From NCBI GenBank assembly GCA_011772425.1, contig WVZO01000485.1, positions 40,514 through 104,513 of the forward strand: a DNA stretch of 64,000 nucleotides, given 5' to 3'. The notes under the pieces were generated by a model. The model ran no database searches. It was not told the origin of the DNA and saw only the letters and a list, made by a program, of their open reading frames with translations. Below are positions 4,001 to 56,300 of the stretch, piece after piece. The translations under genes and the position numbers were made by a program. Positions within the stretch are counted from its first letter, which is position 1, and each line of letters opens with the position of its first letter. The DNA comes from Candidatus Aminicenantes bacterium. GTDB lineage: Bacteria > Acidobacteriota > Aminicenantia > UBA2199.

Positions 4001-5710
4001 AAGAATATGTCCTTCTTCAGTATTGCAAAAGAATCACCTGGAAACCCTAGTAGCCCGGATGAGAAAAGATACTATGATTTGAGCATCAATGCCTTAATCA
4101 GAAGCGGTAGTTTGAGAGTATCCATTAACTTTAGCAGGAAACAATATAAACCTGGAACGATAAAAAAATTCTTAAATAATTACCAGGAGCAATTAAACCG
4201 TGTCATTTCTTTTTGTGCCGGCCGCCAAAAGAGGGAACTTACTCCCAGTGATTTAACCTATAAAGAGCTGTCTATAGAGACTGTTGATCGATTAAACCAG
4301 CAATATTTAATAGAAGATATCTATATTTTATCTCCAATGCAAGAGGGAATACTGTTTTTTGTATTATATAATAAAAACACCACTGCATATTTTGAACAGT
4401 TATCCTGTCGGATTCATGGAAAGTTAGATATATCCATCGTTAAAAAGTGTCTAAGTGATCTGGTGGGTCGATATGAAATATTGCGGACGGTATTTATTCA
4501 TGAAAACCTTAAACGTCCAGTGCAAATCGTTTTAAAAGAACGGGGCGTAGATTTCCATTATGAGGATGTTCGGGAAATGACCGGAGGTGATAGAGAGAGA
4601 TATATAATGAATTTTAAAGAGAGAGATAGACAGCGTTCATTTGATTTGACTAAAGATGTACTCATGCGTTTGACGATCCTGCGGGTAGATGAAGATGAGT
4701 ATGAGTTTGTATGGAGTTTTCATCATATATTGATGGATGGTTGGTGTACAGCGGTAGTGGTCTCAGACTTTTTTAGGATTTATATTAATTATCGGCAAAA
4801 TGGAGAGTATCAACTACCAGGGGTTAAACCATACCGGGATTATATACGATGGTTAGAAAAAAAAGATAAGGAGAAATCGAAACGCTATTGGAGAAAATAT
4901 CTGGAAAATTATAAATATCCCACGACCCTTCCCAAAAAGAAAACCATTAAAACTGCGGGGAAAGAATATATAAATGGACAGATTTCTGCTGCCCTGGATC
5001 AAGAAACAACAGGAAGTCTTAAAAAAATGGCAGGAATAAACCAGGTAACCTTGAATACGATTATGCAGGTTGCCTGGGGAATATTACTGGCAAAGTATAA
5101 TAATAAACGGGATGTTGTGTTTGGGGCAGTGGTTTCGGGTCGTCCAGCTGAAATAGAAGGTATAGAATCGATGGTAGGATTATTTATCAATACCATTCCG
5201 GTTCGAATTCGCTGTGGAGAAAATACGGGATTTATCGATATGTTGAAGTCAGCCCAGGAAGCAGTTATTGATAGTGAATCCCATTGCTATTATCCGTTAG
5301 CGGAAATACAAGCCAATACTTTATTGAAACGAAAATTATTAGACCATATCCTGGTATTCCAAAATTACCCGGTTTCCGCGCAGATAGATGGAATCATGGA
5401 TATAAGGAATAATGAAGATCAACAACAAGCAACTTTTAAATTATCCCGGGTGGAAGCTTTCGAACACAGCAATTATGATCTCATGGTGACATTCTTCCTG
5501 GATGAAAACCTGTTAAAAATAAGATTTGACTATAATATCAATACTTACGATAAAGAAAAATTAAAAAAAGTATTGAGTCATTACATTGATATCCTGGACC
5601 AGGTTAGTGAAAAACCGGGTATGAGGATAAAGGATATTTTTATAGAGAATCGATTGTTAAAAGTGGAATCAAAAGTTTTTGTTGATGAGCAAAGTGATTT
5701 TGGGTTTTAG
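323..5710 (+). CDS. g1 NRPS, domain order C-half / A / T / E / C / tail
   Basis: 1795-aa ORF. The N-terminus holds only the C-terminal half of a C domain (starts ..KERDYWLNKLQGEL.., no HHxxxDG). A cores: LKAGGAYLPLDP, YVIYTSGSTGKPKG, NLYGPTE, GELCISGAGLARGY, YKTGD, GRVDQQVKIRGYRIE, PNGKIDRKAL. T: GGDS at 2756-2767. E: HHLVMDG at 3305-3325 and FNYLGQF at ~3968-3990. C: SPMQEGILFF and HHILMDGW at 4721-4744. Ends ..VDEQSDFGF. Confidence 0.95.
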   Translation: MKSLRYSEKLRIAADHNVKERDYWLNKLQGELPRSNFTYDKKSIEEYGTQYHMDEMGFKLPAALQAGLIRLCNHSDEALHVILLAGLVILLHKYTDNNDILLATPIYREDGDGDFINTVIIIRSRITVDITFKELLLQVKQEVTAANENANYPVEILFEQLGMKSSIEDEFPPDNIILLENIHDEAYIRYMNFNTIFYFSRNNEDIRGVLEYNVLLYNQAAVEKIIAHFINLLQEAVSYVEMMVSEIGVLSQSEKKQLLFDFNDTESDYPGDKCVHNLFEEQVEKTPANAAVVYKDKQITYQELNEKANQLVRILKERGVEAESIVGLMVFRSLETIIGILGILKAGGAYLPLDPGYPMERKKYMLLDSGTELVLTQGRFVDTVDGICEVIEIDDSNLYSGETKNLEKLNNSKNFAYVIYTSGSTGKPKGVIVEHSPVVNLLTALFEEYGFTRYDSYLLKTSYQFDVSVTELFGWFLGGGKLIVLEQENEKEPQKILNAIKDHRITHINFVPSMFNAFVDSLKDENISQLEPLKYIFLAGEAILPEMINKFRRKDNQVIIENLYGPTEAAVYASRFPLSGWNGTGSISIGKPLKNVKLYVLNKHKNLQPVGITGELCISGAGLARGYLNKPELTGEKFIRNPFFEGEKLYKTGDLARWFQDGSLEFLGRVDQQVKIRGYRIEPGEIESILMEHEEIKEALVKTGEDKQGDSYLCAYFVSRQHFSIDILREYLAKNLPDYMIPAYFMRLDKIPLSPNGKIDRKALPVPNQEHLNRDLEYVGPGSPVEEALVNTWQRVFGRSPVGITENFFMIGGDSIKAIQIASRLNKMGLQLEVEHILQYPTILQSAPQVKKVERMASQLLITGEVLLTPIQVWFLDFHHIAPHYYNQAVMLYSKEGFNPEGIRAVFLKIYEHHDALRMTFQQRDGAFIQVNMGLDHLLALQAFDLRDVPLAQAAAEVEARTNEIQGSIDLENGPLMKLALFHLADGDRLLIVIHHLVMDGISWRILFEDIDTLYRQYREGGQLVLPSKTDSFQRWSERLVEYANSNEFLKEKDYWAKWETLPIPVIETDHAEKENYFKDSRGLSFELNEESTGHLLKGINQAFGTEIKDILLTALGLSIKKSFGCHRLLLSLENHGREKIIKDIDISKTVGWFTTVYPLVLDIDYEDDLARQIKEVKEQLHQVPNNGIGYGILKYLTRTENKKDMHFQLRPQIIFNYLGQFSTDIKNMSFFSIAKESPGNPSSPDEKRYYDLSINALIRSGSLRVSINFSRKQYKPGTIKKFLNNYQEQLNRVISFCAGRQKRELTPSDLTYKELSIETVDRLNQQYLIEDIYILSPMQEGILFFVLYNKNTTAYFEQLSCRIHGKLDISIVKKCLSDLVGRYEILRTVFIHENLKRPVQIVLKERGVDFHYEDVREMTGGDRERYIMNFKERDRQRSFDLTKDVLMRLTILRVDEDEYEFVWSFHHILMDGWCTAVVVSDFFRIYINYRQNGEYQLPGVKPYRDYIRWLEKKDKEKSKRYWRKYLENYKYPTTLPKKKTIKTAGKEYINGQISAALDQETTGSLKKMAGINQVTLNTIMQVAWGILLAKYNNKRDVVFGAVVSGRPAEIEGIESMVGLFINTIPVRIRCGENTGFIDMLKSAQEAVIDSESHCYYPLAEIQANTLLKRKLLDHILVFQNYPVSAQIDGIMDIRNNEDQQQATFKLSRVEAFEHSNYDLMVTFFLDENLLKIRFDYNINTYDKEKLKKVLSHYIDILDQVSEKPGMRIKDIFIENRLLKVESKVFVDEQSDFGF
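1110..2620 (+). other. g1 A domain; hand-derived 10-residue code DVTNFALVYK (no signature I recognise)
   Basis: Code read by aligning FDVSVTE.., ..ITHINFVPS.., ..IFLAGE.., NLYGPTEAAVYAS and NGK to GrsA-PheA positions 235/236/239/278/299/301/322/330/331/517. Confidence 0.6.
2900..4230 (+). other. Epimerization (E) domain of g1, motifs intact
   Basis: LTPIQVWFL.., HHLVMDGISW (3305-3325 for HHLVMDG), FNYLGQF. Confidence 0.85.
5681..5707 (+). other. C-terminal tail of g1: VDEQSDFGF
   Basis: Last 9 codons before the stop. An acidic run followed by DFGF. Confidence 0.7.
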
Positions 5711-5786
5711 TGAAAAAAATAGGCCCCGGGAATTCTTTAGAGGGCTGTCTGAGGAACGCGGCGAACAATTTTAACGTTATATTTTA

Positions 5787-5793
5787 AAGGAGG
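5787..5793 (+). promoter_or_regulatory. Shine-Dalgarno site of g2
   Basis: AAGGAGG, 6 nt before ATG 5800. Confidence 0.8.
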
Positions 5794-5799
5794 CATCAA

Positions 5800-7707
5800 A
5801 TGGCACAAAAAAAAAGGTTATGTACCTGTGGTAAGTCAAAGGATGGTCCCTATTGCGATCATACCCATGAACATAAGCATGAACCGGTGGAAACCGAAAC
5901 CCCCGTGGTGAAACGAAAGATTTGTACATGTGGAAAGAGCCGTACCCCACCCTACTGCGATCATTCACATAGTAATGAATGTAAAGAAGTTTTGTCAGCC
6001 ACATCATCGGAGATATCCGCCATCCCGGGTAAAATTCTCCTGCTCATGCCCCCCTATTGGGACCCCCTGATCCCCCCGCAGGGCATCGCGCACCTTAAGC
6101 ATTATTTGCAGCACCACGGCTGTAATGTAAAAACAGAAGACGCCAATACAAGAGAAGAATTCAAAGCGTTTAACAATAAATATTTTGCCCTATTAAAACA
6201 ATTTATCCCCGAACATAAGCAAGGGAACTTTCTTAATATCGGCCAGGATGTGATGCGAAATCATATACTGGCCCACATCAACTATGTGAATGAAAGAGAG
6301 TATCTCGAGCTGGTAAAAAAGATCGTGTATGAAACGTATTTTACGTCTCTTAGTGATGAGCAGGCCAGGGAACTCAAAAAATTAATGGATGATTTTTTGT
6401 TATTGATGCGAAATTATATGCTGCATTTATTCATAACGGAAAAGCCCGATGTTTTGGGGTTAACCGTGCTTAGGGATACCATAGGACCGGCTTTATATGC
6501 CTTCAGGTTTACCAAAGAAAAGTATCCCTTTATCATGACCGTAATGGGAGGTAGTATATTTTCCGATCACCTGCTCCCCGGAACCCCGAATTTTGAACAT
6601 TTTTTAGAGAAGACCCCCTTTATCGACAAGATCATAATCGGGGAAGGCCAGGAATTGTTTTTAAAGTTATTACAGGGCCGGCTGCCGGAATCCCAGCGAG
6701 TATTTACCTTAGAAGATAACGACGGTAAGATATTAAGCTATACGCCATTGAATTTCCCGGACCTGACGGATTTTGACCTGGACGAGGATTATCCTTACCT
6801 GGCGGCGCAGGTATCTTTTAGTTGTCCACACCAGTGCAGTTTTTGCAACGTGGTCTCTTATTTTGGAAAATACAGGTCCAAGGGGGCAACGCAGGCAGTG
6901 AACGAGATGCTGGTACAGCATATGAAATACGGATCGCAATTGTTTTTTATGAACGATTCCCTGCTCAACGAAGCCGCAACCGGTCTTTCGCAAGAGTTGT
7001 TAAAATACCCCACAGTGTTATACTGGGATGGTTATTTAAGGGTAGACGGTGCGGTATGCGACCCCGACGTTACCCTGCTCTGGAGGCGGGCCGGGTTTTA
7101 CCGGGCACGGCTGGGAATCGAAAGCGGTTCGCAGCGCGTACTGGACCTGATTCATAAAGGCATAACAGTGGATCAAATAAAAACGGCATTAATCTCCCTC
7201 GCCAATGCCGGGATAAAAACCACCGCCTATTGGGTTATCGGACACCCCGGGGAAACCGAAGAGGATTTTTTACAAACGTTAGAACTCCTGGGGGAAATCA
7301 AAAATTATATTTATGAAGCCGAATGCAACGCCTTTATCTATGGCTTTAGCGGGCAGGGGAATTCCGAAGAATGGAAAAATAAGCGAAAACTGCTCTATCC
7401 CGAAGAAGCAAAAGATATGCTGATCGTGCAATCATGGATCGTCGATACGGAACCTTCCAGGGCAGAAACCTATGAACGGACCAACCGGTTCGTTAAACGC
7501 TGCAAAGAGTTGGGTATTCCCAACCCCTATTCATTGTACGATATTCATAAAGCAGATGAACGATGGAGGAAACTCCACAAAAATGCGGTCCCCCCACTGG
7601 CATATTTCAAAAAGCAGGACGCTTATATTGATGAGTGTCGAAATGTAAAGAAAGTCATACAAATACAAACCAATCTCCAGGATGACGGGGATTTTGGTTT
7701 TCAATAA
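5800..7707 (+). CDS. g2 stand-alone enzyme: 2 x CDGSH-type Fe-S motif / B12-binding-like domain / radical SAM domain / acidic tail
   Basis: 635-aa ORF with AAGGAGG 6 nt upstream. CTCGKSKDGPYCDHTH at 5821-5868 and CTCGKSRTPPYCDHSH at 5923-5970. Rossmann-like KILLLMPPYWDPLIPPQGIAHL..PDVLGLTV..MGGSIF..KIIIGEGQELF. rSAM cluster motif CPHQCSFC at 6823-6846, then ..RLGIESGSQRVL... Ends ..LQDDGDFGFQ. Confidence 0.9.
   Translation: MAQKKRLCTCGKSKDGPYCDHTHEHKHEPVETETPVVKRKICTCGKSRTPPYCDHSHSNECKEVLSATSSEISAIPGKILLLMPPYWDPLIPPQGIAHLKHYLQHHGCNVKTEDANTREEFKAFNNKYFALLKQFIPEHKQGNFLNIGQDVMRNHILAHINYVNEREYLELVKKIVYETYFTSLSDEQARELKKLMDDFLLLMRNYMLHLFITEKPDVLGLTVLRDTIGPALYAFRFTKEKYPFIMTVMGGSIFSDHLLPGTPNFEHFLEKTPFIDKIIIGEGQELFLKLLQGRLPESQRVFTLEDNDGKILSYTPLNFPDLTDFDLDEDYPYLAAQVSFSCPHQCSFCNVVSYFGKYRSKGATQAVNEMLVQHMKYGSQLFFMNDSLLNEAATGLSQELLKYPTVLYWDGYLRVDGAVCDPDVTLLWRRAGFYRARLGIESGSQRVLDLIHKGITVDQIKTALISLANAGIKTTAYWVIGHPGETEEDFLQTLELLGEIKNYIYEAECNAFIYGFSGQGNSEEWKNKRKLLYPEEAKDMLIVQSWIVDTEPSRAETYERTNRFVKRCKELGIPNPYSLYDIHKADERWRKLHKNAVPPLAYFKKQDAYIDECRNVKKVIQIQTNLQDDGDFGFQ
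5821..5868 (+). other. CDGSH-type [2Fe-2S] motif, copy 1 (variant CDHTH)
   Basis: C-T-C-GKSKDGPY-C-DHT-H shows the exact C-x-C-x8-C-x3-H ligand spacing, plus the conserved Ser and Pro of the CDGSH signature. Gly is replaced by His. Confidence 0.7.
5923..5970 (+). other. CDGSH-type [2Fe-2S] motif, copy 2 (variant CDHSH)
   Basis: C-T-C-GKSRTPPY-C-DHS-H, with the same spacing, 34 aa after copy 1. Confidence 0.7.
7675..7704 (+). other. C-terminal tail of g2 (free rSAM): LQDDGDFGFQ
   Basis: Last 10 codons before the stop. The same DFGF core as g1 and g6. Confidence 0.7.
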
Positions 7708-7708
7708 C

Positions 7709-7715
7709 GAGGTGA
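7709..7715 (+). promoter_or_regulatory. Shine-Dalgarno site for the proposed GTG 7721 start of g3
   Basis: GAGGTGA, 5 nt (8 nt from the GAGG core) before GTG 7721 and just after the g2 stop. Confidence 0.6.
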
Positions 7716-7720
7716 TAGCC

Positions 7721-8470
7721 GTGGAATACATAAAAACGCCCGAAGCAGCAGCCATTGCTGCCAATCAATCATTAAAAGAAAGAAAGTATTGGCAGGAAAG
7801 ATTATCCGGTCAATTGGTAAAAACCGCTTTTCCCACAGACTATAAAAAACCCGGAAAAAAAGGCCGGGAATCACTTCATTTTACCCTTACCGGCGAACTA
7901 TTTTCAAATTTAATGAAATTAAGAAACGGCAGTGATCATCGAATGTTGATGATTTTTGCGGCCGGATTGGTGGCATTGCTGGGGAAATATACGGGGAATA
8001 AAGATATTCTTTTAGGCATACCTGTGGATCGGCAGTCGATTGAAGGTGAGTTTATCAATCGAGCATTGGTATTGAGGAATGTCATTGAAGACACTATGAC
8101 CTTCAGAGAATTGCTATTGCAAGTAAGACAGACCGTTGTCGAGGCAATTGAAAATCAAAATTATCCCATTGAAATCCTATTGGATGACCTGGGATTCGAA
8201 GTTGCCGGCAGTGAAGAGGGATTTCCACTATTTGATATTGCCGTGGTGATTGAGAATATTCATGACAAATCATATATTCAACACATTAATATGAGTATGG
8301 TATTCTTTTTTTCAAGGACAGAACAATGTGTGAAGGGTGTACTGGAATTTGATTCGTCATTGTACAAACATACAACGATAGAGCGGATCGTTGACCATTT
8401 TACTCATTTACTAAAACAAGTGCTTGCAAACGTCCATTGCCAGATATCCGATGTAGACATTCTTTCAGAG
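7721..8470 (+). other. C-half at the N-terminus of g3
   Basis: ..AAIAANQSLKERKYWQERLSGQL.. through ..ILSEEEKEQVLFDFNHT. Same length and layout as the g1 C-half, with no His motif. Confidence 0.8.
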
Positions 8471-10432
8471 GAAGAGAAAGAACAGGTGTTATTTGATTTT
8501 AATCATACCGACATAGTCTATCCAGAGGATAAAAAACTGCATGAGCTATTTGAGGACCAGGTAGAAAAAGCACCGGATCGTATTGCCGTCATATTTGAAG
8601 ATAAATTCTTAACCTATAACCAATTGAACCGGAAGGCGAATCGATTGGGACGGCTATTGAGATCAAAAGGTGTAACGTATGATACGATAGTAGGGATAAT
8701 GCTGGAATCTTCGTTAGAGATGATCATCGGAGCCCTTGGGGTTTTAAAGGCAGGGGGAACGTATCTTCCAATCGGGCTTGATTTTCCGGAAAGCAGGATA
8801 AATTTTATTTTGAATGACAGCGGCGTAGATATCCTGGTAAATAATGGGAATCGGGGCTTTGAAGGATTTATCTCAACAGTCATCGACATTTATGATGATG
8901 CAATCGATCCGGAAGACCACCGGGATCTTGAAATTGAAATGAAAAATGCGAATAAAACCACCCATGCCGCGTATGTTATATTTACCTCCGGTACAACGGG
9001 AAAACCCAAAGGTGTTATCGTGGAGCACAGAAGTGTAGTAAATACCCTTTTTTGCCGGAAAGAAGAATATAAGATGAATCCGGAAATTACTACTTTGCAA
9101 TTGTTTTCATTCACCTTTGATGGTTTTATTACAAGTTTTTTTACTCCCATCATTTCAGGTGCAAAAATTGTGCTCCTGAGTGAAATTGGAATGAAAGATA
9201 TAATAAAGATAAAAAATGCCCTCACATGTCACCAGGTCAATCATTTTATTAGTGTTCCCTCCCTATATCACGTCATAGTTGAGAGTCTTACTAGAGAAGA
9301 GGCCTCTTCATTAAAGATTGTTACGCTGGCGGGAGATCATGTATCGCCAAATATATTGGAAACAACAAAAGATAAAAACCCGAAAATCGAAATAGTGAAT
9401 GAGTACGGAATTACCGAAGCAGCGGTAATGTCAACCATTTACAGGCACCAGGAAAAAGAGACTCAAATAAAGATAGGAGAGCCCATAGGAAATACTAGGA
9501 TTTATATAATAGATGGACATTATCATTTGCAGCCGATTGGAGTCCCCGGAGAATTATGTATTGCCGGTGTTGGCCTGGCACGGGGATATTTAAACAAACC
9601 GGAATTGACAACGGAAAAGTTTGGAAAAGCTGTCATTAGTCATTTGTCATTAGAGACTGGTTCTTTTTATAGCTCTCAAAAAACCAATGACCGGTGTCCA
9701 ATGATCAATGCCAAACTGTATCGGTCCGGTGACCTGGCCCGGTGGCTTCCTGACGGAAACATCGAATTTTTAGGCAGGAAGGATTACCAGATTAAAATAA
9801 GGGGTTACCGGATCGAATTGGGGGAGATAGAAAATCAACTGCGAACCTATGATCCGATAAAAGAAGCTGTTGTTTTAGCAAAAGAAAACAATCAAGGAGA
9901 AAAATATCTGTATGCTTTCCTCTTGACCGATAACGAAAGCAATATAAAAATTGATGTTTCTGCCCTCAGACAATATTTATCCAAGAAATTACCTGATTAT
10001 ATGATTCCCGCATATTTTCTAGAAATCGATCAAATACCCTTAACTCCCAATGGCAAAATTGATAACAGAACGCTGTTGAATCTTAATGAAGTGATTGCTG
10101 AAGCAGAATATGTAGAACCTCGAAACGAAACCGAAGAGAAACTGGTTCAAATTTGGAAGAATCTACTGGACACCCAAAGGATTGGCATAAAAGATAATTT
10201 TTTTAATATTGGTGGAGATTCGATAAAATCTATACGGTTAATGAACTTAATAAATGAAGAATTCAATAAGAAATTTGAATTGGCAGATATCTATGAAAAT
10301 GAGACCATTGAAAAACTTGCAGAAAAGGTACAATTGATACAGGATAAGGAGATGATAGATTCCTCTGATAAATATAAAGAGTCTTTAGAAAGAATGGAAG
10401 AAGTAAAAAGCAAATTTATGAAGGAGATTTAA
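7721..10432 (+). CDS. g3 NRPS, C-half / A / T
   Basis: The ORF track starts at ATG 7682, inside g2. I prefer the in-frame GTG 7721, which has GAGGTGA at 7709-7715 and lies after the g2 stop at 7707. The N-terminus ..SLKERKYWQERLSGQL.. is only the C-terminal half of a C domain. A cores: LKAGGTYLPIG, YVIFTSGTTGKPKG, NEYGITE, GELCIAGVGLARGY, YRSGD, PNGKIDNRTL. T: GGDS at 10211-10222. Ends ..MEEVKSKFMKEI, with no DF-type tail. Confidence 0.9.
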   Translation: MEYIKTPEAAAIAANQSLKERKYWQERLSGQLVKTAFPTDYKKPGKKGRESLHFTLTGELFSNLMKLRNGSDHRMLMIFAAGLVALLGKYTGNKDILLGIPVDRQSIEGEFINRALVLRNVIEDTMTFRELLLQVRQTVVEAIENQNYPIEILLDDLGFEVAGSEEGFPLFDIAVVIENIHDKSYIQHINMSMVFFFSRTEQCVKGVLEFDSSLYKHTTIERIVDHFTHLLKQVLANVHCQISDVDILSEEEKEQVLFDFNHTDIVYPEDKKLHELFEDQVEKAPDRIAVIFEDKFLTYNQLNRKANRLGRLLRSKGVTYDTIVGIMLESSLEMIIGALGVLKAGGTYLPIGLDFPESRINFILNDSGVDILVNNGNRGFEGFISTVIDIYDDAIDPEDHRDLEIEMKNANKTTHAAYVIFTSGTTGKPKGVIVEHRSVVNTLFCRKEEYKMNPEITTLQLFSFTFDGFITSFFTPIISGAKIVLLSEIGMKDIIKIKNALTCHQVNHFISVPSLYHVIVESLTREEASSLKIVTLAGDHVSPNILETTKDKNPKIEIVNEYGITEAAVMSTIYRHQEKETQIKIGEPIGNTRIYIIDGHYHLQPIGVPGELCIAGVGLARGYLNKPELTTEKFGKAVISHLSLETGSFYSSQKTNDRCPMINAKLYRSGDLARWLPDGNIEFLGRKDYQIKIRGYRIELGEIENQLRTYDPIKEAVVLAKENNQGEKYLYAFLLTDNESNIKIDVSALRQYLSKKLPDYMIPAYFLEIDQIPLTPNGKIDNRTLLNLNEVIAEAEYVEPRNETEEKLVQIWKNLLDTQRIGIKDNFFNIGGDSIKSIRLMNLINEEFNKKFELADIYENETIEKLAEKVQLIQDKEMIDSSDKYKESLERMEEVKSKFMKEI
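8500..10075 (+). other. g3 A domain; code DGTITAEVMK (9/10 to the Tyr signature DGTITAEVAK as I recall it)
   Basis: FDGFITS.., ..VNHFISVPS.., ..VTLAGD.., NEYGITEAAVMST, NGK. Confidence 0.6.
9632..9652 (+). repeat. In-frame tandem heptamer GTCATT[A/T] x 3 in the A6-A7 loop of the g3 A domain
   Basis: gtcatta gtcattt gtcatta, followed by the direct repeat CCAATGA at 9684-9690 and 9698-9704. The loop is ~32 aa here, against ~12 aa in g1. Confidence 0.7.
10421..10426 (+). promoter_or_regulatory. Shine-Dalgarno site of g4, inside the 3' end of g3 (translational coupling)
   Basis: AAGGAG, 7 nt before ATG 10434. The g3 stop is at 10430-10432. Confidence 0.75.
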
Positions 10433-34100: not shown

Positions 34101-34185
34101 ATTGAAAGATATTAAGATGTCTCATGTCGTTAGCGCTGCTGAGGCAGATGTTTTTGAAGATGATGGGACCGATTTCGGTTTTTAG
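28162..34185 (+). CDS. g6 hybrid PKS/NRPS, KS / AT / KR / carrier / C / tail
   Basis: 2007-aa ORF. KS Cys codon at 28708-28710, HGTATHIGD, NIGHLDTAAG. AT GYSFGE at 30091-30108 and ASRAIHS. KR GGIYLVTGGLGGIG and ..GHVGYCSANSF. PCP-like carrier GGDS at 32653-32664. C domain YPLSSAQKRFY.. with HHIITDL at 33214-33234. Ends ..FEDDGTDFGF. Confidence 0.95.
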   Translation: MNTKGDRKQTGLEIAVIGMAGRFPGATNLEEFWNNLKDGIESIAFFGDEELKEAGVGSSFLKDPNYVKANGELQDKDHFDNSFFGYSPKEAEIMDPQIRVFHECAWEVLEEAGYVPDSYNGLIGIYAGGSDNFSWRALEALKGLGTDLGTFGRSILNIGFYLSTRVSHKLNLKGPSLTFFNACSTSLVAIHLACRALLMGECDMALAGGVSITNHTKRGYTYEEGMIMSPDGHCRTFDTNACGSVYGEGVGIVALKRFKEAIKDGDTIHAVIKGSAVNNDGINKASFTAPGPGIASIVKKALKVAHVNTEDISYVEAHGTATHIGDTLEVKALKQAFNSDVKGYCRIGSVKTNIGHLDTAAGVAAFIKTILALEHKAIPPSLHFKKPNPDIDFENSPFVVNTELSEWRNGNGKGPLIAGVNGFGIGGTNVFVVLEEAPEIESSPEEEKECSEWKIILLSARSEPALNKTTENFKEYLESNPNVNFADVVYTLQVGRKAFQYRRMLVCSSIKEAIEVLSTPASRKIKTFLSRVENREIIFMFSGLGSQYVNMGLELYQKERIFRQELDRCLEILEPLMGYDIKEILYPGLHTPTASHPSVSRRDSNPTVADINQAEITQPIIFIFEYALAKLLMKWGIKPQAMIGYSFGEYVAAAVSGVFSLEDALKMVVLRGRLIQEVSPGAMLSVPLSCEEVTPDLPDELSLAIDNGSSCVVAGPDAAVADFEHQMKEKKVLCMRLKASRAIHSKMMGAILAEFQEICRQVTLNKPQIPYISNVTGTWISDEEAVSPVHWAKHLRETVRFADGIKELTRKTGAIFVEIGPGRDLSALLMRYIDNNSDQHALSLVRQPEQDISDVYFLMSKLGQLWLYGREIDWREFYGEEKRHRIPLPTYPFQRQQFCIEGDPFQMAQQMLSEGSPNAQKLEVSDWFYVPSWKRTPAISQRESENSDQTMPADCLVFMDEDNWGKTLVKQLENKHQDVTIIRAAQMFRKINNREYTINPADDNQYEKLFSNIREEKGVFPGKMIHLWNVTTKKTDDLNLESIDSLLDLGYYCLLNIARAIGKLNIEDDIDITVVTNNMQEVVGQDQRCPEKATLLGPVKTIPKEYGNISLRSIDIRLPQTGREEEEKLIECLIKEFFSKDHEPVIAFRNHFRWIQTYEPVRLEKSESETWRLKDGGIYLVTGGLGGIGYVLAQQIVRSVRNPKLILTGRTKLPEPGKWDQWLEDHDEEDSISAKITKVRGLEGMGAKVLVVSGENSNLEQMQQVISRAEEQFGPINGVVHSAGLPDGAMIQVRTREQSEIVFSSKLKGTLILAMLLKHVKLDFFVLCSSIDSIMSNAGHVGYCSANSFLNAFATYKFNKDKVFTTAISWPRWQSLGMAVIQENLHKELKGYDLSGGLEIEDGIDAFSRILGENLPQVAVTSNDLGRAYERDKTVGTEAFMAEFDAADDAPENLFQRPDLTSEYVAPQNETQQSLARIWQTLFGIEKIGIQDDFFELGGDSLKVVITISKIHKELDVEIPVSEFFNTPNIQDLAKYMTGDISKDKESTYLSIEPGEKKEFYPLSSAQKRFYIIQQLDVHSIVFNNPRVVVLQGELLKDKLEGAIKQLIQCHEILRSSFEIFDKEPVQRINETFDFAIEYHELPEEETRQLIETFVKPFDLAKVPLFRVCLVKVGGGEQILMFDMHHIITDLYSRTIFIRECLQVYNGLEQPLLRLQYKDFCQWQHDMLVSGRLKKQEEYWVEHFSGELPVLELSTDYPRPEVHSFEGTALVFSLQGEVMRKLNTLMKKTGTTLFMMILALYNILLSKYSGQSDIIIGAPVAGRSHANLENMMGLLIETIVIRNYPDPDQTFVKFLEEVKNNSLEAFDNQSYPFGELLKHLGPQHDQSRNPLFDAMLMVQNVEQLPEEAKKEELSIAPYKYEPHDMSKVDITFEVEPVDGGNGLLFKVEYCTRLFKEETMERFTHFFIEIVSTVVDNPTIKLKDIKMSHVVSAAEADVFEDDGTDFGF
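34153..34182 (+). other. C-terminal tail of g6: FEDDGTDFGF
   Basis: Last 10 codons before the stop. Confidence 0.7.
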
Positions 34186-35560: not shown

Positions 35561-38500
35561 TCGGAAGCGGAAAAAAATCAATTATTATGTGGTTTTAATG
35601 ATACAAGTTCGCATTATCCCAGGGATAAGACCATCCATGAATTGTTTGAGGAGCAGGCAGATAGAGCCCCGGATAAAGTGGCTGTTGTGATGAATAATGA
35701 GTTCATTAAATACAGAGAATTGAATATGAGAGCCAACCGGGTGGCGAGAATGTTAAGAAAAAAGGGGGTTGGAGCCAACAGTATAGTAGCAATGATGCTG
35801 GAACCTTCAATTAATACTATCATCGGAATATTTGGGGTATTAAAAGCGGGTGGAGCATATTTGCCTATAGACCCGGATTATCCTAAGGATCGGATCACGT
35901 TCCTGCTGAATGACTCCACGGCCAAAATTTTATTGACTGACACAAAGAGCATTAAAAAATACCCTTTTACAGTTTTACAAGGCTTGAATATAACAAATGA
36001 CTCAATACAGGTAAAGGTTACAGGCACTCGTTCGCAGATTAAAGATTTAGATCATTTACCCATACCCAATCGATCCCTGGTGGATTATGAAAAGTACAAC
36101 CAATATATTGGTCAGGCAATGGTAAAGCATTGCATATCCGTGCAATCTACACGAGGATGTCCTTATAAATGTGCATATTGCCATAAAATCTGGCCTAAAA
36201 CCCATGTGTGGCGTTCCGCTGAAAGTATCTTTGCAGAAATAAAGCTTTATTATGATATGGGAGTCAGAAGATTTGCGTTTATCGATGATATCTTCAATTT
36301 GAATATTAAAAACAGTTCACGCGTATTAAATTTGATTATTGAAAATGGGTTGGATATACAGATTTTTTTCCCAAATGGTGTGCGTGGAGATATTTTAACT
36401 AAAGAATACATAGACCTATTGGTCCAGGCTGGAACGGTTGATCTTGCTTTTGCTTTGGAAACAGCGTCACCTCGGTTGCAGAAGCTAATTAGAAAGAATT
36501 TGAACCTTGAGAAGTTTAGAGAAAATCTTGAGTATGTATGCCAAAAATATCCTCATGTGATAGTTGAGCTTTTTACCATGCATGGCTATCCCTCGGAAAC
36601 AAAAGAAGAGGCCAGGATGACTTTGGATTTTATCAAGAGCATAAAATGGCTCCATTTTCCGTATGTTTTTGTTTTGATGATTTACCCCAACACGGATATG
36701 GAGAAATTGGCTTTGGAAAATGGGGTTTCAAGAGAAGCGATTCTTGCGTCCCAGGACAAACCTTTTCATGAATTACCCGAAACCTTACCTTTTGATAAAA
36801 GTTTTACATTAAAGTACCAGACTGAATTTACCAGCGAATACTTTTTATCCAAGGAAAGGCTGGTGCAGGTACTGCCGTATCAACTCAAGATTTTGACAGA
36901 AAGTGAAGTGATTCAAAAGTACAATAGCTATCTCCCGATTGATATTAATTGTTTGGATGATTTATTGGAATTTGCAGGGATTACATACGAGGAGTTGGGC
37001 GTCAAAGGATTACTGAATGAAGATTATATGGAGGTTCCTGATTTAAATAATAAGATGAGAAATGCCTTTGCATCTTCGTCAGTCAGGCCTTCCAAAGGTG
37101 CCCTGCGAGTTTTGCTCCTGGATTTATCCCAGCATTTTAGTAGAGGCAGCGATCAACTCTTTGACCTTATCGAGCCTCCTCTGGGGCTTATGTACCTTAT
37201 GACCTATTTAAACCACCGGTTCGGCAGCAATATTAAGGGAAGAATCGCAAAATCCATGATTGATTTTAACAGCTATGGAGAGCTGAAGTTGTTGTTGGAT
37301 GAATTTAAGCCAGAAATAATCGGAATACGAACATTGACGCTATTTAAAGATTTTTTTCATGAAACTGTCTCAAGGATTCGACAGTTTGGTGTGGATGCTC
37401 CCATCATTGCTGGAGGACCTTACGCTACAAGTACTTATCAGATCCTATTAATGGATCGGAATATTGATCTGGTAGTTCTGGGAGAAGGGGAAATAACTTT
37501 TAGCGAGATAATCGGGAAAATGATCGAGAACGATGGAAAATTCCTTCATGAGCATACCTTAAATAAAATCAGAGGGATTGCATTTATCCCAAAGAGTGAA
37601 GAACTCTCCAATGGCTTGGGCCGAGAGATAATTTTTATGGATGATCTCCCAAAAGAGACGTTAAATGAAGATGGTGAGAATTTACACCATGTCAATCAAC
37701 CCCAGGATTTAGCTTATGTGATTTATACTTCCGGTACCACTGGAAAACCAAAAGGTACACTTACTACTCATTCCAACGTCATCCGGGTTGTCAGGAACTC
37801 AAATTATATTGATTTGACCGAGAATGATAGGATATTACAGTTGTCCAGTTATACATTTGATGGGTCTGTATTCGATATTTATGGAGCACTCTTGAATGGG
37901 GCTTTGTTGCTAATGGTGAAAAAAGAGGATGTGTTATCGCCGGAAGTATTGGCTCAGTTGATTAAAAAGGAGGAGATAACCGTCTTTTTCGTAACAACGG
38001 CATTATTTAATGCTCTGGTTGATATAAATGTCACTTGTTTCGATCCTGTTAGGAAAGTTCTATTTGGGGGGGAACGGGTTTCTGTAAAACATACTGGGAG
38101 AGCTCTGGAATATTTGGGAAAGGACCGGATTATTCACGTTTACGGTCCCACCGAAACAACCGTTTATGCCACCTATTTTTTTGTTAATGAGATAGATAGA
38201 AACCTGGATACTATACCCATTGGTAAGCCAATTTCAAATACTACCGTATTCATACTGGACAATCGTTTTAAACCCGTGCCAATAGGTGTAAAAGGTGAGA
38301 TTTATATAGGAGGAGACGGTGTTGCCAGAGGATATCTAAATAGCCCGGAATTAACCTGGGAAAAATTTATTCCAAATCCTTTTACTGTAGAAGATCGGTT
38401 ATATAGAACTGGAGACCTGGCCCGATGGCTGCTGGATGGAAACATCGAGTTTTTTGGAAGAATCGATCACCAGGTGAAGATAAGGGGATATCGGGTGGAA

Positions 38501-50300: not shown

Positions 50301-53300
50301 GGAGGAGAGTTTCACGGCACTGCTTGAAGAAGGCCGGCAGGAGACCCTGGATTCCTATGAACACCAGGATTATCCCTTTAATCTCCTGGTTGAACAATTG
50401 GGCCTGGATCGTGATGTCAGCCAATCTCCCCTGTTCAATGTAATGGTTGCTCACATTAACCTGGGGAAACAGGAAGACAAACTGTTGATGGACGGGATTA
50501 CCCTTGAAGATTCCTCTGAACTTGAGAATTTTAACATGAGTGCCTTTGATTTGATATTTTTTATGGAGGAGGTGGAGGACCATATAAATTGTATATTCAA
50601 TTATAATAGCGATTTATTCGAAGCGGCTACAATCGAACGTATGTCCGTTAATTTCTTAACGTTCCTGGAAAATGCCGTCGATAACCCGGATTTACCGGTC
50701 TCGCAATTGAGTGTGATCGCTGAGGCGGAATCTCGAAAGATAATATGCGAGTTCAATGAAAACCAGCAGGAGTTTCCGTCCCTGACACTCCAGGAGCTCT
50801 TTGAACACCAGGTGGAAAAATCCCCGGGGAAAACAGCCGTTGTTTATTATAAGGATGAAATCACCTATAACGATTTAAATAAGAAAGCCAATCGATTGGC
50901 CCATTACCTAAGAGACCAGTATGGTGTGGGAAAAGGTAAGATTATCGGCATATGTATCGACCGCAGCATCGAGATGGTAACAGCCCTGTTGGGAATCATT
51001 AAAGCCGGGGCGGGTTATGTGGCCATTGATCCCACTTACCCGGAAGATCGCGTATTACATATGCTCAATGATAGTCAGGCTGATTTATTAATCATTGACA
51101 AATTAAGGCCCCACCTGTTTGCAAACTATAAAGGGAAAATGATTGATATCCATTCGGGTTGGACGGATATCTCGTTAAAATCCACTGAAAATCCGGAACT
51201 GATCAATGATTTTTCCGATATCTTGTATGTGATATACACTTCCGGTTCAACCGGGACCCCCAATGGTGCGATGCTGTCTCAGGGGATTTTATCCAATCTT
51301 ATCCAGTGGCAGGAAAATAACACTTCTATCGACGCTTCCGGGCCCTGCTTACAATTTACCTCCGTGAATTTTTGTGTCTCCTTCCAGGAGATAATGATTA
51401 CGCTGACCTCCGGGGGAGAAGTCCACCTGATTGACGATATTGAACGGCGTGATATCGATTATTTAATGGATTTTCTTTCAGAGCATAAAATTGAGTTGTT
51501 GTACTTGCCCTTTTCCTATCTTAATTTTCTATTTAATGAATCCAGCCGATGGGGAGAGAGTTTTAAGCATGAATTAAAGCATATTATCACTGCCGGTGAG
51601 CAATTAAAAATAACCAGGGGATTAAAGGAGTTCCTGGAGTGCAATCGACATATAAAACTGCACAATCATTACGGTTCATCGGAGATGCATGTGGTTACTT
51701 CGTACACCATGGATTATACCGAAGCGGATACCCGTCCCGTTCCACCGGCGGGAAAGCCCATTGCCAACACGAGGATATTTATCCTGGATGAACACCGTAA
51801 TCCCGTACCTATCGGCGTTTGGGGAGAATTGTGCATTGAAGGCAGTTGGGAAGTGGCAGGATATATTAATAACAGAGAACTTACCGATAAGAAGCTTATA
51901 TCCCACCCTGTTTTAAATGAAGGCAATAAACATCTTTATTGTTCCGGCGATATTGGGCGTTGGCTGCCGGACGGCAATATAGAATTGAGGGGAAGAAAAG
52001 ACACGCAGGTTAAAGTTCGGGGTTTCAGGGTAGAACTCAGTGAGATAGAGAGTAAAATATTAGCTGTAGAGGGAGTAAACGATTGTGTGGCAGTCGTGAA
52101 ATCGGATGAGAAGGGAGAGAAATACCTGGCCGCTTATGTGGTGGTGGAAGAGGTTGATGTGGGTGAAATTAAAAAGCAGCTCAACAATTATTTACCCCAG
52201 TACATGATACCCAAATTATTGGTACTGGATAAATTGCCTCTTATGCACAATGGAAAAGTGGATCGAGATAGGTTACCCGACCCGGAAACAATGGTAAAGG
52301 CTATTTATGATATTAAACCGGGTACGGTTTCTTCTTTATTACGTTCAGGGGATTTTCAACCGCAGGAATGGCAAAATATATCGCTCCTGGATGCGGATAA
52401 ATCTACAGTGGAAAAGGTGATTGCCTATTTTACCTCCCTGGTCCGGGATCAATTTCTTGATGAGACCGTTGGGGTGAGCCAGATCGATATTAATGTGCTT
52501 ACCGGGAAGGATAAGGAACGGTTATTGTCGGAGGCGGGTGAACCCGGGGTGTCGTCAAGCCATGACCGAACACTGCAGGGGTTTTTTGAAGAGCAGGTTA
52601 GCGAAACGCCGCGCAATATTGCTGTTATAGAGTATATGGAATGCTCTACTCTCACCTACGAAGAATTAAATAAAAGGTCTAATCAATTAGCCCATCTCTT
52701 AAGAAGAAAAGGCGTTCAACCGGGCACTGTGGTGGGAGTGATGATAAAACCTGGCATAGAGATGATTATCGGGATAGCCGCTGTTTTAAAGGCGGGAGGC
52801 GGTTACCTGGCCGTGGACCGGGACCTTTCATCAGACGAAGCGATTGCATTGTTAAAAGAGAACAATGTCTCAATGGTGTTGAGCAGCACCGCTGCCATGG
52901 GTAAACATCCTTTTAAAAAATTCCTGGGATTTGCAACAAACGGGGTAGAACCTCATATTTCCTGCATCCGCCAGCAGATCACTGATTTTAACGGTTTACC
53001 CATTCCTGACCGGTCGCTGGTGGATTATGAAAAGTACGGTAAAAATATCGGTTTGGCCATGGCTAAGCATACCATTACGCTGCAAGCCACCCGAGGTTGT
53101 CCTTATAATTGCCTTTATTGTCATAAAATCTGGCCGAAAAAACATGTGATTCGTTCGGCGGAAAATATTTACCAGGAGCTTAAGCTTTACTACGACATGG
53201 GCGTTCGCCGGTTTGTGTTTGTGGATGATATTTTTAACCTGGATATGGAAAACAGCAAGAAATTCTTCGAAGCCATCATTGCCAACGGCCTGGAGGTTCA

Positions 53301-56300
53301 GCTTTTCTTTCCCAACGGCTTACGCAGCGATCTGTTAACCAGAGATTATATTGACCTGATGGTAAAGGCAGGAACGGTTTCGCTGGGGTTGGCCCTGGAG
53401 ACCGCCTCGCCCCGGCTGCAAAAGTTGATTAAAAAGAACCTGAACCTGGAGAAACTCCATGAAAACCTAAAGTATCTTTGCTCCCATTATCCCCAGGTGA
53501 TCGTAGAGCTTTTCTTGATGCACGGTTTTCCCACTGAAACCGAAGAAGAAGCCCGGATGACTTTAGATTTCCTTAAAAGTCTCAAGTGGATCGATTTTCC
53601 CTATTTTCATATCCTGAAGATTTATCCCCATACGGATATGGCTGAGATGGCGGTACAAAACGGCGTATCGGCAGAGGCCATCGCCCGTTCGGCAGACCTG
53701 GCATATCACCAATTGCCTGAAACCCTTCCCTTTGATAAAAGCGTTACCCTTCGCTTCCAGACTGAATTCTTGAATGACTATTTCCTCCGAAAAGACCGGT
53801 TGTCGGCCAAACTCCCCTATCAAATGAGGGTATTGACAGAAGATGAAATCGTCCAAAAATACAACAGCTACCTGCCGGTGGACATTAAAACCTTTGAAGA
53901 TTTCCTGGATTTTGCCGGCATTTCAAAAGAAGAATTGATAACCCTGGAATTCCTGGATGAGGAAGCGGTATCAACTCCCGGTTTAAATGATAAACTCATG
54001 GATCATTTTCCTGTAAATAAACCGGGTAAGAATGCCTTAAGGATTTTGCTGCTGGATTTATCCCAGTTTTTCAGTGGAGAAAAAGATATTCTTTATGATG
54101 GTGTAGAGCCGCCGTTGGGTTTGATGTACTTGCTGACCTGGTTAAACCGGCAATTGGGAAACAAAATTGCCGGGAAGATTGCCAAATCACGCATCGATTT
54201 TGACAATTATAAGCAATTGAAAGCCCTGCTTGATGAGTTTCAAGCGGATATAATCGGCATACGAACCTTAACCTATTATGGAGATTTCTTCCATAAAACG
54301 GTTTCCCTTATCCGGCAGTGGGGCATCGATGTTCCCATTGTAGCAGGGGGCCCATATGCTACCAGCGATTTCGCCACTATTTTGCAGGACCCCAATGTAG
54401 ATCTGGTGGTATTGAGTGAAGGTGAGTTAACATTTTGTGAATTGATGGAAAAAGTCCTGGAAAATAACGGTGAGCTGCCGGATGACAGTGTGTTAAGAGA
54501 TATCCCCGGGCTCGCTTTTATCCCCGGTACCCATAAAGATGATCGTTACCGTAAAGAGAAGCGGGAAATTCTCCTGTTGGACGAGCTCAGGGATATGTTG
54601 AGTGAAGAGCCGGATAAAAACCCTGAACCTGTTAATGAGCTGACCGATCTGGCTGCTGTCATCTATGGGACTGGTTCAAACCGGCAGCAAGTCAGACTCC
54701 CGGTGTCGCATAAAAATGCAATTCAAATGCTATCCGGGTTAAGGGAAGATTTTTATGCCGGGTACAACAGCAGCGGCGGTGCGGAATTCCCGGTGATGAT
54801 CGGTTCATGGGTATTTAACGGTTCCCTGGAACAACTGTTTGCAGCCCTGCTGCAAGGGGGAACGCTGTGTGTGCCCCCGGGAGATACCCGCATTGATGAT
54901 ATCGGTTTATTGGAGTATTATAAGGAACGGAATAAGGAATCCGCCGGGACTTTCCTACACCTGCGGTTAATGTGGAAAGGCGGTCATAAAGGTATGAAGC
55001 AACTTCCAGGTGAGGAAGATTATACAGCACCCACCAACCAAATAGAAGAAGTTTTAGTGGATATCTGGTCGGAGGTCCTGGGAATAGGCAAAGACATGAT
55101 TGGTATTGATTCCGACTTTTTTGAGGTGGGAGGGCATTCCTTGAAAGCCACTATCGTGGTATCCAAAATACATAAAAAATTCAATGTAAGAGTACCGTTG
55201 GCTGAGATGTTTAAAGCCTCTACCATCCGTGAGTTGGTCCAATATATAACGGAAGCCTCTAAAGTTGAATACACCCACGTGGAGGCAGCGGAGGAGAAGG
55301 AATATTACCCCTTATCTCCGGCACAAAAGCGGTTGTATATTGCGCAGCAATTCGACTTGAAGAGTTCCGGTTACAATTTGCCCCGTATATTTATTCTGGA
55401 GGGAAAACCGGATGCAAAGAAGATGAATGATACCTTTAAGCAAATGATTGAAAGACATGAAAGCTTTCGATCGTCTTTTATAAATGTAAATGATGAGCCG
55501 GTCCAAAAAATCCGTGATCATGTGGAATTTGGAATCGAAGATTATCAGGTTGAAGTTGACGTTCCCATTGAGGAGATAACCCGGGGCTTCATTCGTGCTT
55601 TTGACCTATCGCAGGCACCGCTGCTGCGGGTGGGATTGATGCATATGGGAAAAGAAAAATATATCCTGATGATGGATATGCATCATATCATCACGGACGG
55701 TATTTCCATGGCGATTTTCGTCAACGAATGGATGGCCCTGTACTGTGGAGAGGAATTACCGGCGTTAAAGCTTCATTACAAGGATTATTCGGAGTGGCAA
55801 GGGCGGTTGTGGAAAAATGACTCCCAGGCTCTGGAAAGCCAGGAAAACTTCTGGTTGAAGCAGTTTGAAGGTGAAATATCCGCATTGACTCTCCCATTGG
55901 ACTACGAGAGACCGGGCGTATTTCAGTTTGAAGGGAAGCAATACATTTTTGAAATAGGCAAAGAAGAGACAGAGGCATTAAGAAACGTGATAAAAGAGGA
56001 AGATGTAACTCTTTTTATGTTTTTGCTTGCGGTTTTTTATGTTTTGTTGGCAAAAACCAGTGGTCAGGGGGACATCGTGGTGGGAATCCCGGTGATGGGA
56101 CGAAGGCATGCCGATTTTCAGTCGATAATCGGGATGTTCGTCAACTCCCTGGCCTTGAGGAATTACCCCGAAGCAAAGAAAACCTTCAAAGAATTCTTAA
56201 TGGAGTTAAAAGAAAGAGCTTTGAAGGCATTTGATAACCAGGACTACCAGTTTGATGAATTAGTGGATAGGTTGGATATTGAACGGAAACCCAATCGAAA

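Follow-up and report, generated by a model that had tools for sequence, protein, structure and literature searches.

What is a pair of CDGSH-type iron-sulfur motifs doing at the N-terminus of a cobalamin-type radical S-adenosylmethionine (SAM) enzyme, and could it be carrying electrons to or from the cofactors of that enzyme? The question is posed by g2, a gene in a 64,000-nt stretch of DNA from a Candidatus Aminicenantes bacterium (contig WVZO01000485.1, positions 40,514 to 104,513), referred to here in its entirety as the window. Judged by profile scores and conservation, the motifs are genuine CDGSH-family signatures, and the architecture that they form with the enzyme is real, conserved, suggestive as regards electron supply, and dispensable in most relatives. 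As to function, we see about equal weight for and against the N-terminal module being a tethered [2Fe-2S] redox relay, operating in either direction, a reading reached by analogy with other CDGSH fusions.

Two CDGSH-type motifs open the g2 protein

The elements of the N-terminal part of g2, with the signal that precedes the gene, are as follows.

5800..7707, + strand: g2, a CDGSH-CDGSH / cobalamin-domain / radical SAM protein of 635 aa, recognised from its open reading frame (ORF), Pfam, NCBIfam and AlphaFold2 (AF2) modelling
5786..5793, + strand: Shine-Dalgarno sequence AAAGGAGG, 6 nt 5' of the g2 ATG, read from the sequence
5821..5868, + strand: CDGSH-type motif 1, CTCGKSKDGPYCDHTH (aa 8-23), with predicted ligands C8, C10, C19 and H23
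5869..5922, + strand: inter-motif linker, EHKHEPVETETPVVKRKI (aa 24-41), rich in His, Pro and Glu, which aligns with the linkers of 3TBN and MiNT
5923..5970, + strand: CDGSH-type motif 2, CTCGKSRTPPYCDHSH (aa 42-57), with predicted ligands C42, C44, C53 and H57
5971..6030, + strand: tether, SNECKEVLSATSSEISAIPG (aa 58-77), from the CDGSH pair to the enzyme core, with a predicted local distance difference test score (pLDDT) of ~58-61 in its AF2 block

The protein translated from 5800-7707 of the + strand begins MAQKKRLCTCGKSKDGPYCDHTHEHKHEPVETETPVVKRKICTCGKSRTPPYCDHSHSNEC. Its two motifs, offset from each other by 34 aa, have the layout that an earlier note on this DNA had ascribed to them: C-x-C-x8-C-x3-H spacing, Ser, Pro and Asp at the signature places and His in place of Gly, at coordinates that are exact. 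Set against the signature C-X-C-X2-(S/T)-X3-P-X-C-D-G-(S/A/T)-H, both copies have every residue but the Gly. The zf-CDGSH profile (PF09360) recognises them well above its cut-off of 29.5 bits, scoring 42.3 bits on the full g2 protein and 50.1 bits on aa 1-70; it matches in two stretches, each corresponding to positions 29-48 of the 48 in the profile. A loose version of the signature is found twice in the six-frame translation of the window, both times in g2, as against a mean of 0 in 200 shuffles.

The DNA of the two motif copies is identical at 31 of 48 nt, with four synonymous codon differences, and Tandem Repeats Finder detects no tandem repeat at the motif pair; the level of identity, the synonymous differences and the lack of a DNA repeat together argue for an old duplication, one kept by selection at the protein level. 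The extension also belongs to a translated operon gene. The strong Shine-Dalgarno sequence before the ATG at 5800 supports this start, and with it translation of the CDGSH extension; combined with the 26-nt overlap between the g2 stop and the g3 start, it points to an extension lying inside a translated gene of an operon.

The nearest relatives of the motif pair

The N-terminal segment of g2 (aa 1-72) was compared by HMMER with 1.84 billion representative proteins, and 494 matched at E 0.001 or better. Of the best 150 of these 494, 113 are no longer than 125 aa and 122 contain two CDGSH motifs, usually spaced by 36-38 aa as against the 34 of g2; the segment thus lines up with hundreds of two-motif CDGSH proteins that are 70-100 aa long. 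A sequence search of the PDB placed both motifs in one alignment with the Magnetospirillum CDGSH protein 3TBN (E 1.2e-5), and likewise with human MiNT/CISD3 (6AVJ; E 1.5e-5). Since these alignments run in one piece, they identify the g2 segment as of the class II two-motif CDGSH type: by homology it corresponds to a MiNT/3TBN-like protein minus a lead of ~20 residues.

The His that replaces the signature Gly might have been a functional novelty of g2. Relatives of the segment mostly have Gly at this position, and also His, Asn, Ser, Asp and Tyr, in undoubted CDGSH proteins; and when metagenomes were scanned with a DNA pattern for the CDH[ST]H form, 15 of the 17 loci retrieved proved to be ordinary stand-alone CDGSH genes. 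As stand-alone genes show the same variant, the idea of a novelty is rejected, and the Gly-to-His change is, on this comparison, a recurrent natural variant and no hallmark of the fusion. Certain loci (L090, L094, L098, L101, L103, L104 and L105) each have two small single-motif CDGSH ORFs, of 53-68 aa with CDGTH and of 62-69 aa with CDHSH; the products of such pairs may form a heterodimeric NEET-type protein.

Gain and loss of CDGSH units in the g2 family

At E 1e-5 or better g2 has 1742 homologues, the named ones being from Candidatus Aminicenantes metagenome-assembled genomes (MAGs) and one from Bacteroidales. Among the best 120, the motifs are intact in 18 plus g2 itself and degenerate in two more. 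A census of units, drawn from the best homologues together with fragments and cluster members, yielded 30 carrier proteins with 53 units in all, present in one copy (16 proteins), two (7), three (5) or four (2), with periods of 28-36 aa. The carriers make up several subclades, interleaved with non-carriers, whose cores are 50-70% identical to that of g2, and even proteins more than 90% identical differ in copy number: P0273 has one unit, P0274 two. The tether region varies among homologues, some of which have a CPHxxxSH remnant of a decayed extra motif; in some single-copy members this C-P-H-x-x-x-S-H is what is left of a second unit. The array of four units in P0080 (locus L005, 10016-10394) coincides with a 108-nt DNA tandem repeat of 3.5 copies with 94% matches, and so looks like a recent amplification, unlike the diverged g2 pair.

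Within the units themselves little changes. Of 46 distinct units, all 46 have G4, 45 have K5, 45 P10, 45 D13 and 43 S15; the linkers, by contrast, vary freely. Such retention of unit residues beside variable linkers argues for purifying selection on the metal site. The pattern is that of a metal-binding unit under selection, in a module that is itself accessory and undergoes rapid tandem gain and loss.

That CDGSH-less homologues are simply truncated gene calls holds for a few (P0272 and P0276, compared with P0273 and P0274); most have genuine short leaders. In the pairs P0272/P0273 and P0276/P0274, which belong to one 90%-identity cluster, the gene callers differ in their choice of start codon and the extension is cut off; the start-codon case involves proteins of 588 aa and 612 aa, both on 156,498-nt contigs. 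The non-carrier loci available as DNA have no CDGSH motif in any frame. A scan of genome contigs with the family alignment found three true family loci, in one Aminicenantes MAG and none with CDGSH, the remainder of that scan being 77 relatives at <=45% identity, mostly 22-31%.

The enzyme behind the motifs

The remainder of g2 is composed as follows.

6031..6699, + strand: putative N-terminal domain of Rossmann-like, cobalamin-binding type that includes a long helical insert (aa 78 to ~300), pLDDT >90
6817..7290, + strand: radical SAM core (aa 340-497), Pfam Radical_SAM 60.7 bits against a cut-off of 29.5
6823-6846, + strand: CxxxCxxC motif CPHQCSFC (aa 342-349), within the radical SAM core
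7690..7701, + strand: C-terminal acidic DFGF tail (aa 631-634), docking-like, which also ends g1 and g6

AF2 modelling of full-length g2 gave a mean pLDDT of 90.4 and a predicted template modelling score (pTM) of 0.86, the core (aa 78-620) being above 90. Over its whole chain the model matches TsrM, MgmA, OxsB, AprD4, TokK and CysS with E values of 1e-10 to 1e-14, and no CDGSH is present among the PDB chains matched by the core. AprD4, for its part, is not known to use cobalamin. The three cysteines C342, C346 and C349 are invariant across 120 homologues. The earlier note had placed a B12-binding-like domain and a radical SAM core after the motifs: the CPHQCSFC motif bears out the core, and the whole-chain matches make the B12-type domain likely, its Pfam B12-binding match falling short at 22 bits against a cut-off of 32.1. 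None of the named NCBIfam subfamilies (BchE, the PhpK family, the RiPP C-methyltransferases and others) is reached, the best being BchE at 108 bits as against 481. From its fold and motif, then, the g2 core probably falls into class B, the cobalamin-type radical SAM enzymes, and its family is uncharacterised. The chemistry met most often in this class is methyl transfer, and g2, a stand-alone enzyme associated with the assembly line, is most likely a C-methyltransferase acting on a peptide or polyketide product.

A proposed tethered relay: support and difficulties

What we infer for the module is cluster binding, a redox function and a direction of electron flow, as follows. Each g2 unit would hold a single [2Fe-2S] cluster by a 3Cys-1His set of ligands (C8/C10/C19/H23 in motif 1, C42/C44/C53/H57 in motif 2), and the CDGSH pair, cut down and flexibly tethered, would make up an accessory redox appendage of g2. 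The module could then pass single electrons between an external carrier and the cofactors of g2, whether to feed the cobalamin / [4Fe-4S] side or, as a sink, to drain the active site; an external source of electrons would still be required beside it.

The company kept by CDGSH arrays elsewhere is what recommends this reading. Bacterial arrays retrieved in the same HMMER search are fused to electron-transfer machinery: six CDGSH units to an FNR-like flavin adenine dinucleotide (FAD)/NAD module (FAD_binding_6/NAD_binding_1) in P0132 and P0137; four to a flavin mononucleotide (FMN) dehydrogenase (FMN_dh) and cytochrome b5 (Cyt-b5) in P0149; two to the FMN domain of glutamate synthase (Glu_synthase) in P0212; and four to Fer2, Rieske and cyclase domains in P0129. 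Because redox enzymes of the flavin, haem and Fe-S kinds have such arrays attached to them, the g2 extension is best read as a tethered [2Fe-2S] redox module. The earlier note had gone further, proposing a built-in electron-transfer module that would free the enzyme from any separate reductant partner. The first part of that proposal is plausible by analogy with the CDGSH-redox fusions; the second does not follow, since an Fe-S module merely relays electrons and needs a source of them, and since the potential of mitoNEET lies near 0 mV.

Several observations weigh against a relay. The N-terminal strands of the Pfam profile are absent from the g2 unit, positions 29-48 alone being matched, and in the relatives with a 28-aa period the 12 residues between motifs are too few for the canonical NEET beta-cap. 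Modelling of aa 1-82 by AF2 from a 114-sequence alignment produced a structure of pLDDT 69 and pTM 0.29 with almost no regular secondary structure. All 29 of the 29 matches obtained with this N-terminal model by Foldseek against the PDB are NEET proteins, none of them significant (best E 0.2, template modelling score ~0.2), and the cluster-binding loop alone superposes on NEET proteins, with a root-mean-square deviation (rmsd) of 1.0-2.7 Å over 17-25 columns. Copy numbers of one and three are at odds with the pairing of clusters that is the rule in NEET proteins. The extension is absent from about 100 of the 120 closest homologues, whose short N-termini are genuine, which argues that the module is accessory and that catalysis does not depend on it. 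No core residues co-vary convincingly with presence of the module: the best position, 417, is Glu in 70% of carriers as against 12% of non-carriers, and no additional Cys or His is seen. Lastly there is the potential. The reduction of radical SAM clusters and of cob(II)alamin calls for roughly -450 to -600 mV, and a carrier at ~0 mV is roughly 0.4-0.5 V too positive to reduce either a radical SAM [4Fe-4S]2+ cluster or cob(II)alamin. The potential of mitoNEET is ~0 mV at pH 7.5 (PMC9737848). Unless its own potential is strongly tuned, the g2 module would thus serve better as a sink for an oxidative step, as a gate or sensor, or as a cluster donor than as the immediate reductant.

Motif 2 has the best local confidence of the N-terminal model (block pLDDT 75, 87 and 77 over residues 31-60), and the metal cradle of g2 looks locally CDGSH-like. 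The unit is a cut-down CDGSH without its N-terminal strands, and the models did not confirm a NEET fold. In the full-length model residues 1-75 have pLDDT 43-61 and do not pack on the core; the inter-motif linker falls below 50, and the tether includes a short helix at aa 58-66. Low confidence and lack of docking in the N-terminal 75 residues are as expected of a tethered module whose folding would depend on its cofactor.

The biosynthetic cluster

The window holds one nonribosomal peptide synthetase/polyketide synthase (NRPS/PKS) cluster, comprising g1-g9 and an ORF that is cut by the window end, all on the + strand. It contains five radical SAM modules: g2, g8 (27% identical to g2) and three embedded cassettes, at 35909-37618 in g7, 52858-54537 in g9 and 61056-62723 in the end-running ORF, which are 58-60% identical to one another. 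That g8 and the three cassettes lack the CDGSH motif, as the earlier note had stated, is correct; g2 is the sole carrier among the five. The three cassettes, of radical SAM plus B12 type, sit inside NRPS adenylation domains and have the domain order radical SAM then B12, the reverse of that in g2 and g8. The same adenylation-embedded architecture is seen in locus L007 and in the Aminicenantes genome CP070627.1 (L006).

All six of the six neighbourhoods inspected are NRPS or PKS-NRPS clusters, several from Aminicenantes MAGs, and they usually have several radical SAM genes or adenylation-embedded radical SAM cassettes. The L005 cluster includes a g2-type paralogue called without the extension, P0080 with its four canonical CDGSH units, and a g8-type enzyme. 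In L006, an Aminicenantes cluster without CDGSH, a 66-aa Cys protein (…NCYQCNGNC…, with a faint DUF1858 match; 1347-1547) lies between the g2-type radical SAM gene and the NRPS; to judge from its sequence it could be an alternative small redox partner.

Acidic DFGF tails close g1 (~5699-5707), g2 (7690-7701) and g6 (~34171-34182), and g7, g8 and g9 have the similar C-terminal tails DFDI, DFEL and GFDF. In the g2 family the C-terminal consensus is DxGDFGF and F634 is nearly invariant. The stand-alone radical SAM proteins and the NRPS/PKS subunits thus have the same docking-like C-terminal tail. The gene downstream of g2, g3 (7682-10432), opens with the C-terminal half of a condensation domain (Pfam profile positions 185-455 at aa 24-269), unlike the complete condensation domain with which g1 ends; the N-terminal sequences of g1 and g9 are similar (YWLNKL...).

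Other explanations for the module

Could the module serve as a built-in Fe-S cluster reservoir or repair device, labile 3Cys-1His [2Fe-2S] clusters being handed over and, for example, two of them reductively coupled to rebuild the oxygen-sensitive [4Fe-4S] cluster of g2 or of the other four radical SAM modules? Oxidised mitoNEET does hand clusters on to apo-acceptors (PMC9737848, PMC5859297), the two g2 units would together hold the iron and sulfur of one [4Fe-4S] cluster, and the tether is flexible. The array is attached to one of the five radical SAM modules of the window and to one of the visible radical SAM genes in the L005 and L007 loci, as would suit a shared service function. Copy numbers of one and three are nonetheless common, most such clusters are without any CDGSH, fused or free, within 10 kb, and no cluster-transfer partner is evident; we regard a reservoir as unlikely. 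The same flexible, basic segment might instead be a structural metal knuckle, holding Zn or Fe, that provides an N-terminal docking element for the acidic DFGF tail of g1. The units are indeed strongly basic (KKRLCTCGKSK, VKRKICTCGKSR), acidic tails close g1, g2 and g6 with similar ones on g7, g8 and g9, the radical SAM subunits are in line with the synthetase genes, and a cut-down unit may not form a NEET fold at all. Members without the module, however, keep the C-terminal tail along with short basic leaders, which implies that docking needs no CDGSH; the signature is conserved beyond the needs of a simple knuckle; and to our knowledge every CDGSH domain studied binds [2Fe-2S], not Zn. A knuckle of this kind is rather unlikely.

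Slightly more remote is a sensor of redox state, O2, NO or pH, the state of the cluster gating activity or assembly-line docking so as to shut down a costly anaerobic tailoring step under oxidising conditions. The clusters of NEET proteins are labile to redox state and to pH, and a sensing role has been suggested for them (PMC9737848); the module, accessory and quickly gained and lost, resembles a regulatory add-on; and a conserved H-x-H-x-H run after the motif could add proton sensitivity. As many as four copies would be hard to explain in a sensor, and neither the models nor the co-variation search revealed an output domain or contact surface, so that a sensor seems quite unlikely. As for the motifs being a chance resemblance or a non-functional remnant, the Pfam match covers the last 20 profile positions alone and precomputed annotations grade it 'faint' or 'weak'. 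The score is nevertheless above the profile cut-off, two signatures were observed as against none in shuffles, conservation of the motif extends over 53 units in 30 members of the family, and the synonymous divergence between the g2 copies is a mark of selection. Profile score, distribution in homologues, shuffles and unit conservation together effectively refute this explanation, to which we assign a negligible probability. Of the readings considered, the tethered [2Fe-2S] redox relay is the one that we favour.

Comparison with known systems

Sengupta et al., in their survey of CDGSH proteins, list Fer4_19, Glu_synthase, Ferritin-like and Rieske_2 domains as fusion partners (PMC5859297). In g2, as in those proteins, CDGSH units are add-ons on a larger redox protein; unlike g2, none of the fusions in that list has a radical SAM or B12-domain partner (PMC5859297). 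The survey also says that it met no protein with more than two CDGSH units (PMC5859297), a statement contradicted by the g2 family, which reaches four units, and by the FNR-like fusions, which reach six. In the full-text literature on CDGSH with radical SAM, cobalamin or biosynthetic gene clusters we found no description of the fusion. Some members do bear the Joint Genome Institute (JGI) label 'radical SAM superfamily enzyme YgiQ/CDGSH-type Zn-finger protein', and precomputed Pfam annotation lists both domains. The architecture joins two known kinds of protein, a class B radical SAM enzyme and a minimal, copy-variable CDGSH array, and is no new kind of system.

Assays of cobalamin radical SAM enzymes rely on flavodoxin systems or on artificial reductants such as methyl viologen (PMC8992657, PMC12858407), and few physiological electron donors of the cobalamin-dependent members have been identified; a redox module fused to one of them in nature would show the point of entry or exit of electrons and could help in reconstituting such enzymes. 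A bolder proposal, which we put forward tentatively and think somewhat doubtful, is that the copy-variable string of one to four [2Fe-2S] clusters is a dedicated electron port of an assembly-line-docked cobalamin radical SAM enzyme, possibly serving all five radical SAM modules, or else an oxidative sink or a store of spare clusters. If true, a NEET-type cluster would for the first time be known to work in a natural radical SAM enzyme, and a minimal CDGSH unit would function without the NEET beta-cap. For work on NEET proteins, the interest of the family is a bacterial CDGSH module whose client enzyme is obvious, in stripped-down form and at one to four per chain. The five radical SAM modules, three of them adenylation-embedded, suggest for their part that an uncultivated lineage makes a nonribosomal product with extensive radical tailoring.

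The closest likeness of the module itself is to 3TBN, MiNT and the bacterial class II CDGSH proteins, with which g2 shares two C-x-C-x2-[ST]-x3-P-x-C-D-x-[ST]-H motifs per chain and all of the 3Cys-1His ligands, at a spacing of 34 aa in place of the usual 36-38. It differs from 3TBN and MiNT in lacking the N-terminal lead of ~20 residues, just MAQKKRL preceding motif 1; in having His for the signature Gly; in that its pair is joined to an enzyme of 560 aa and does not make up a protein by itself; and in having relatives with one, three or four units at periods down to 28 aa.

The enzyme, on the other hand, resembles DscE, TokK, CysS and TsrM in its putative N-terminal Rossmann/cobalamin-type domain followed by a CxxxCxxC radical SAM core; we know of no CDGSH on any of these four. 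DscE, a cobalamin-type radical SAM C-methyltransferase that acts with an NRPS in discodermin biosynthesis (PMC12858407), also shares with g2 its NRPS association.

For the joining of the two parts the nearest parallel is eukaryotic TYW1, where a flavodoxin-like FMN domain is fused to the N-terminus of a radical SAM enzyme (PMC8941971). In both proteins a domain for a redox cofactor, putative in g2, stands ahead of the radical SAM core, and in both cases homologues without that domain exist; the TYW1 fusion presumably internalises the supply of electrons (PMC8941971). The TYW1 domain is a low-potential flavin carrier that has been shown to work with NAD(P)H, whereas the g2 module, with its [2Fe-2S]-type motifs, would probably have a higher potential and would take no hydride from NAD(P)H.

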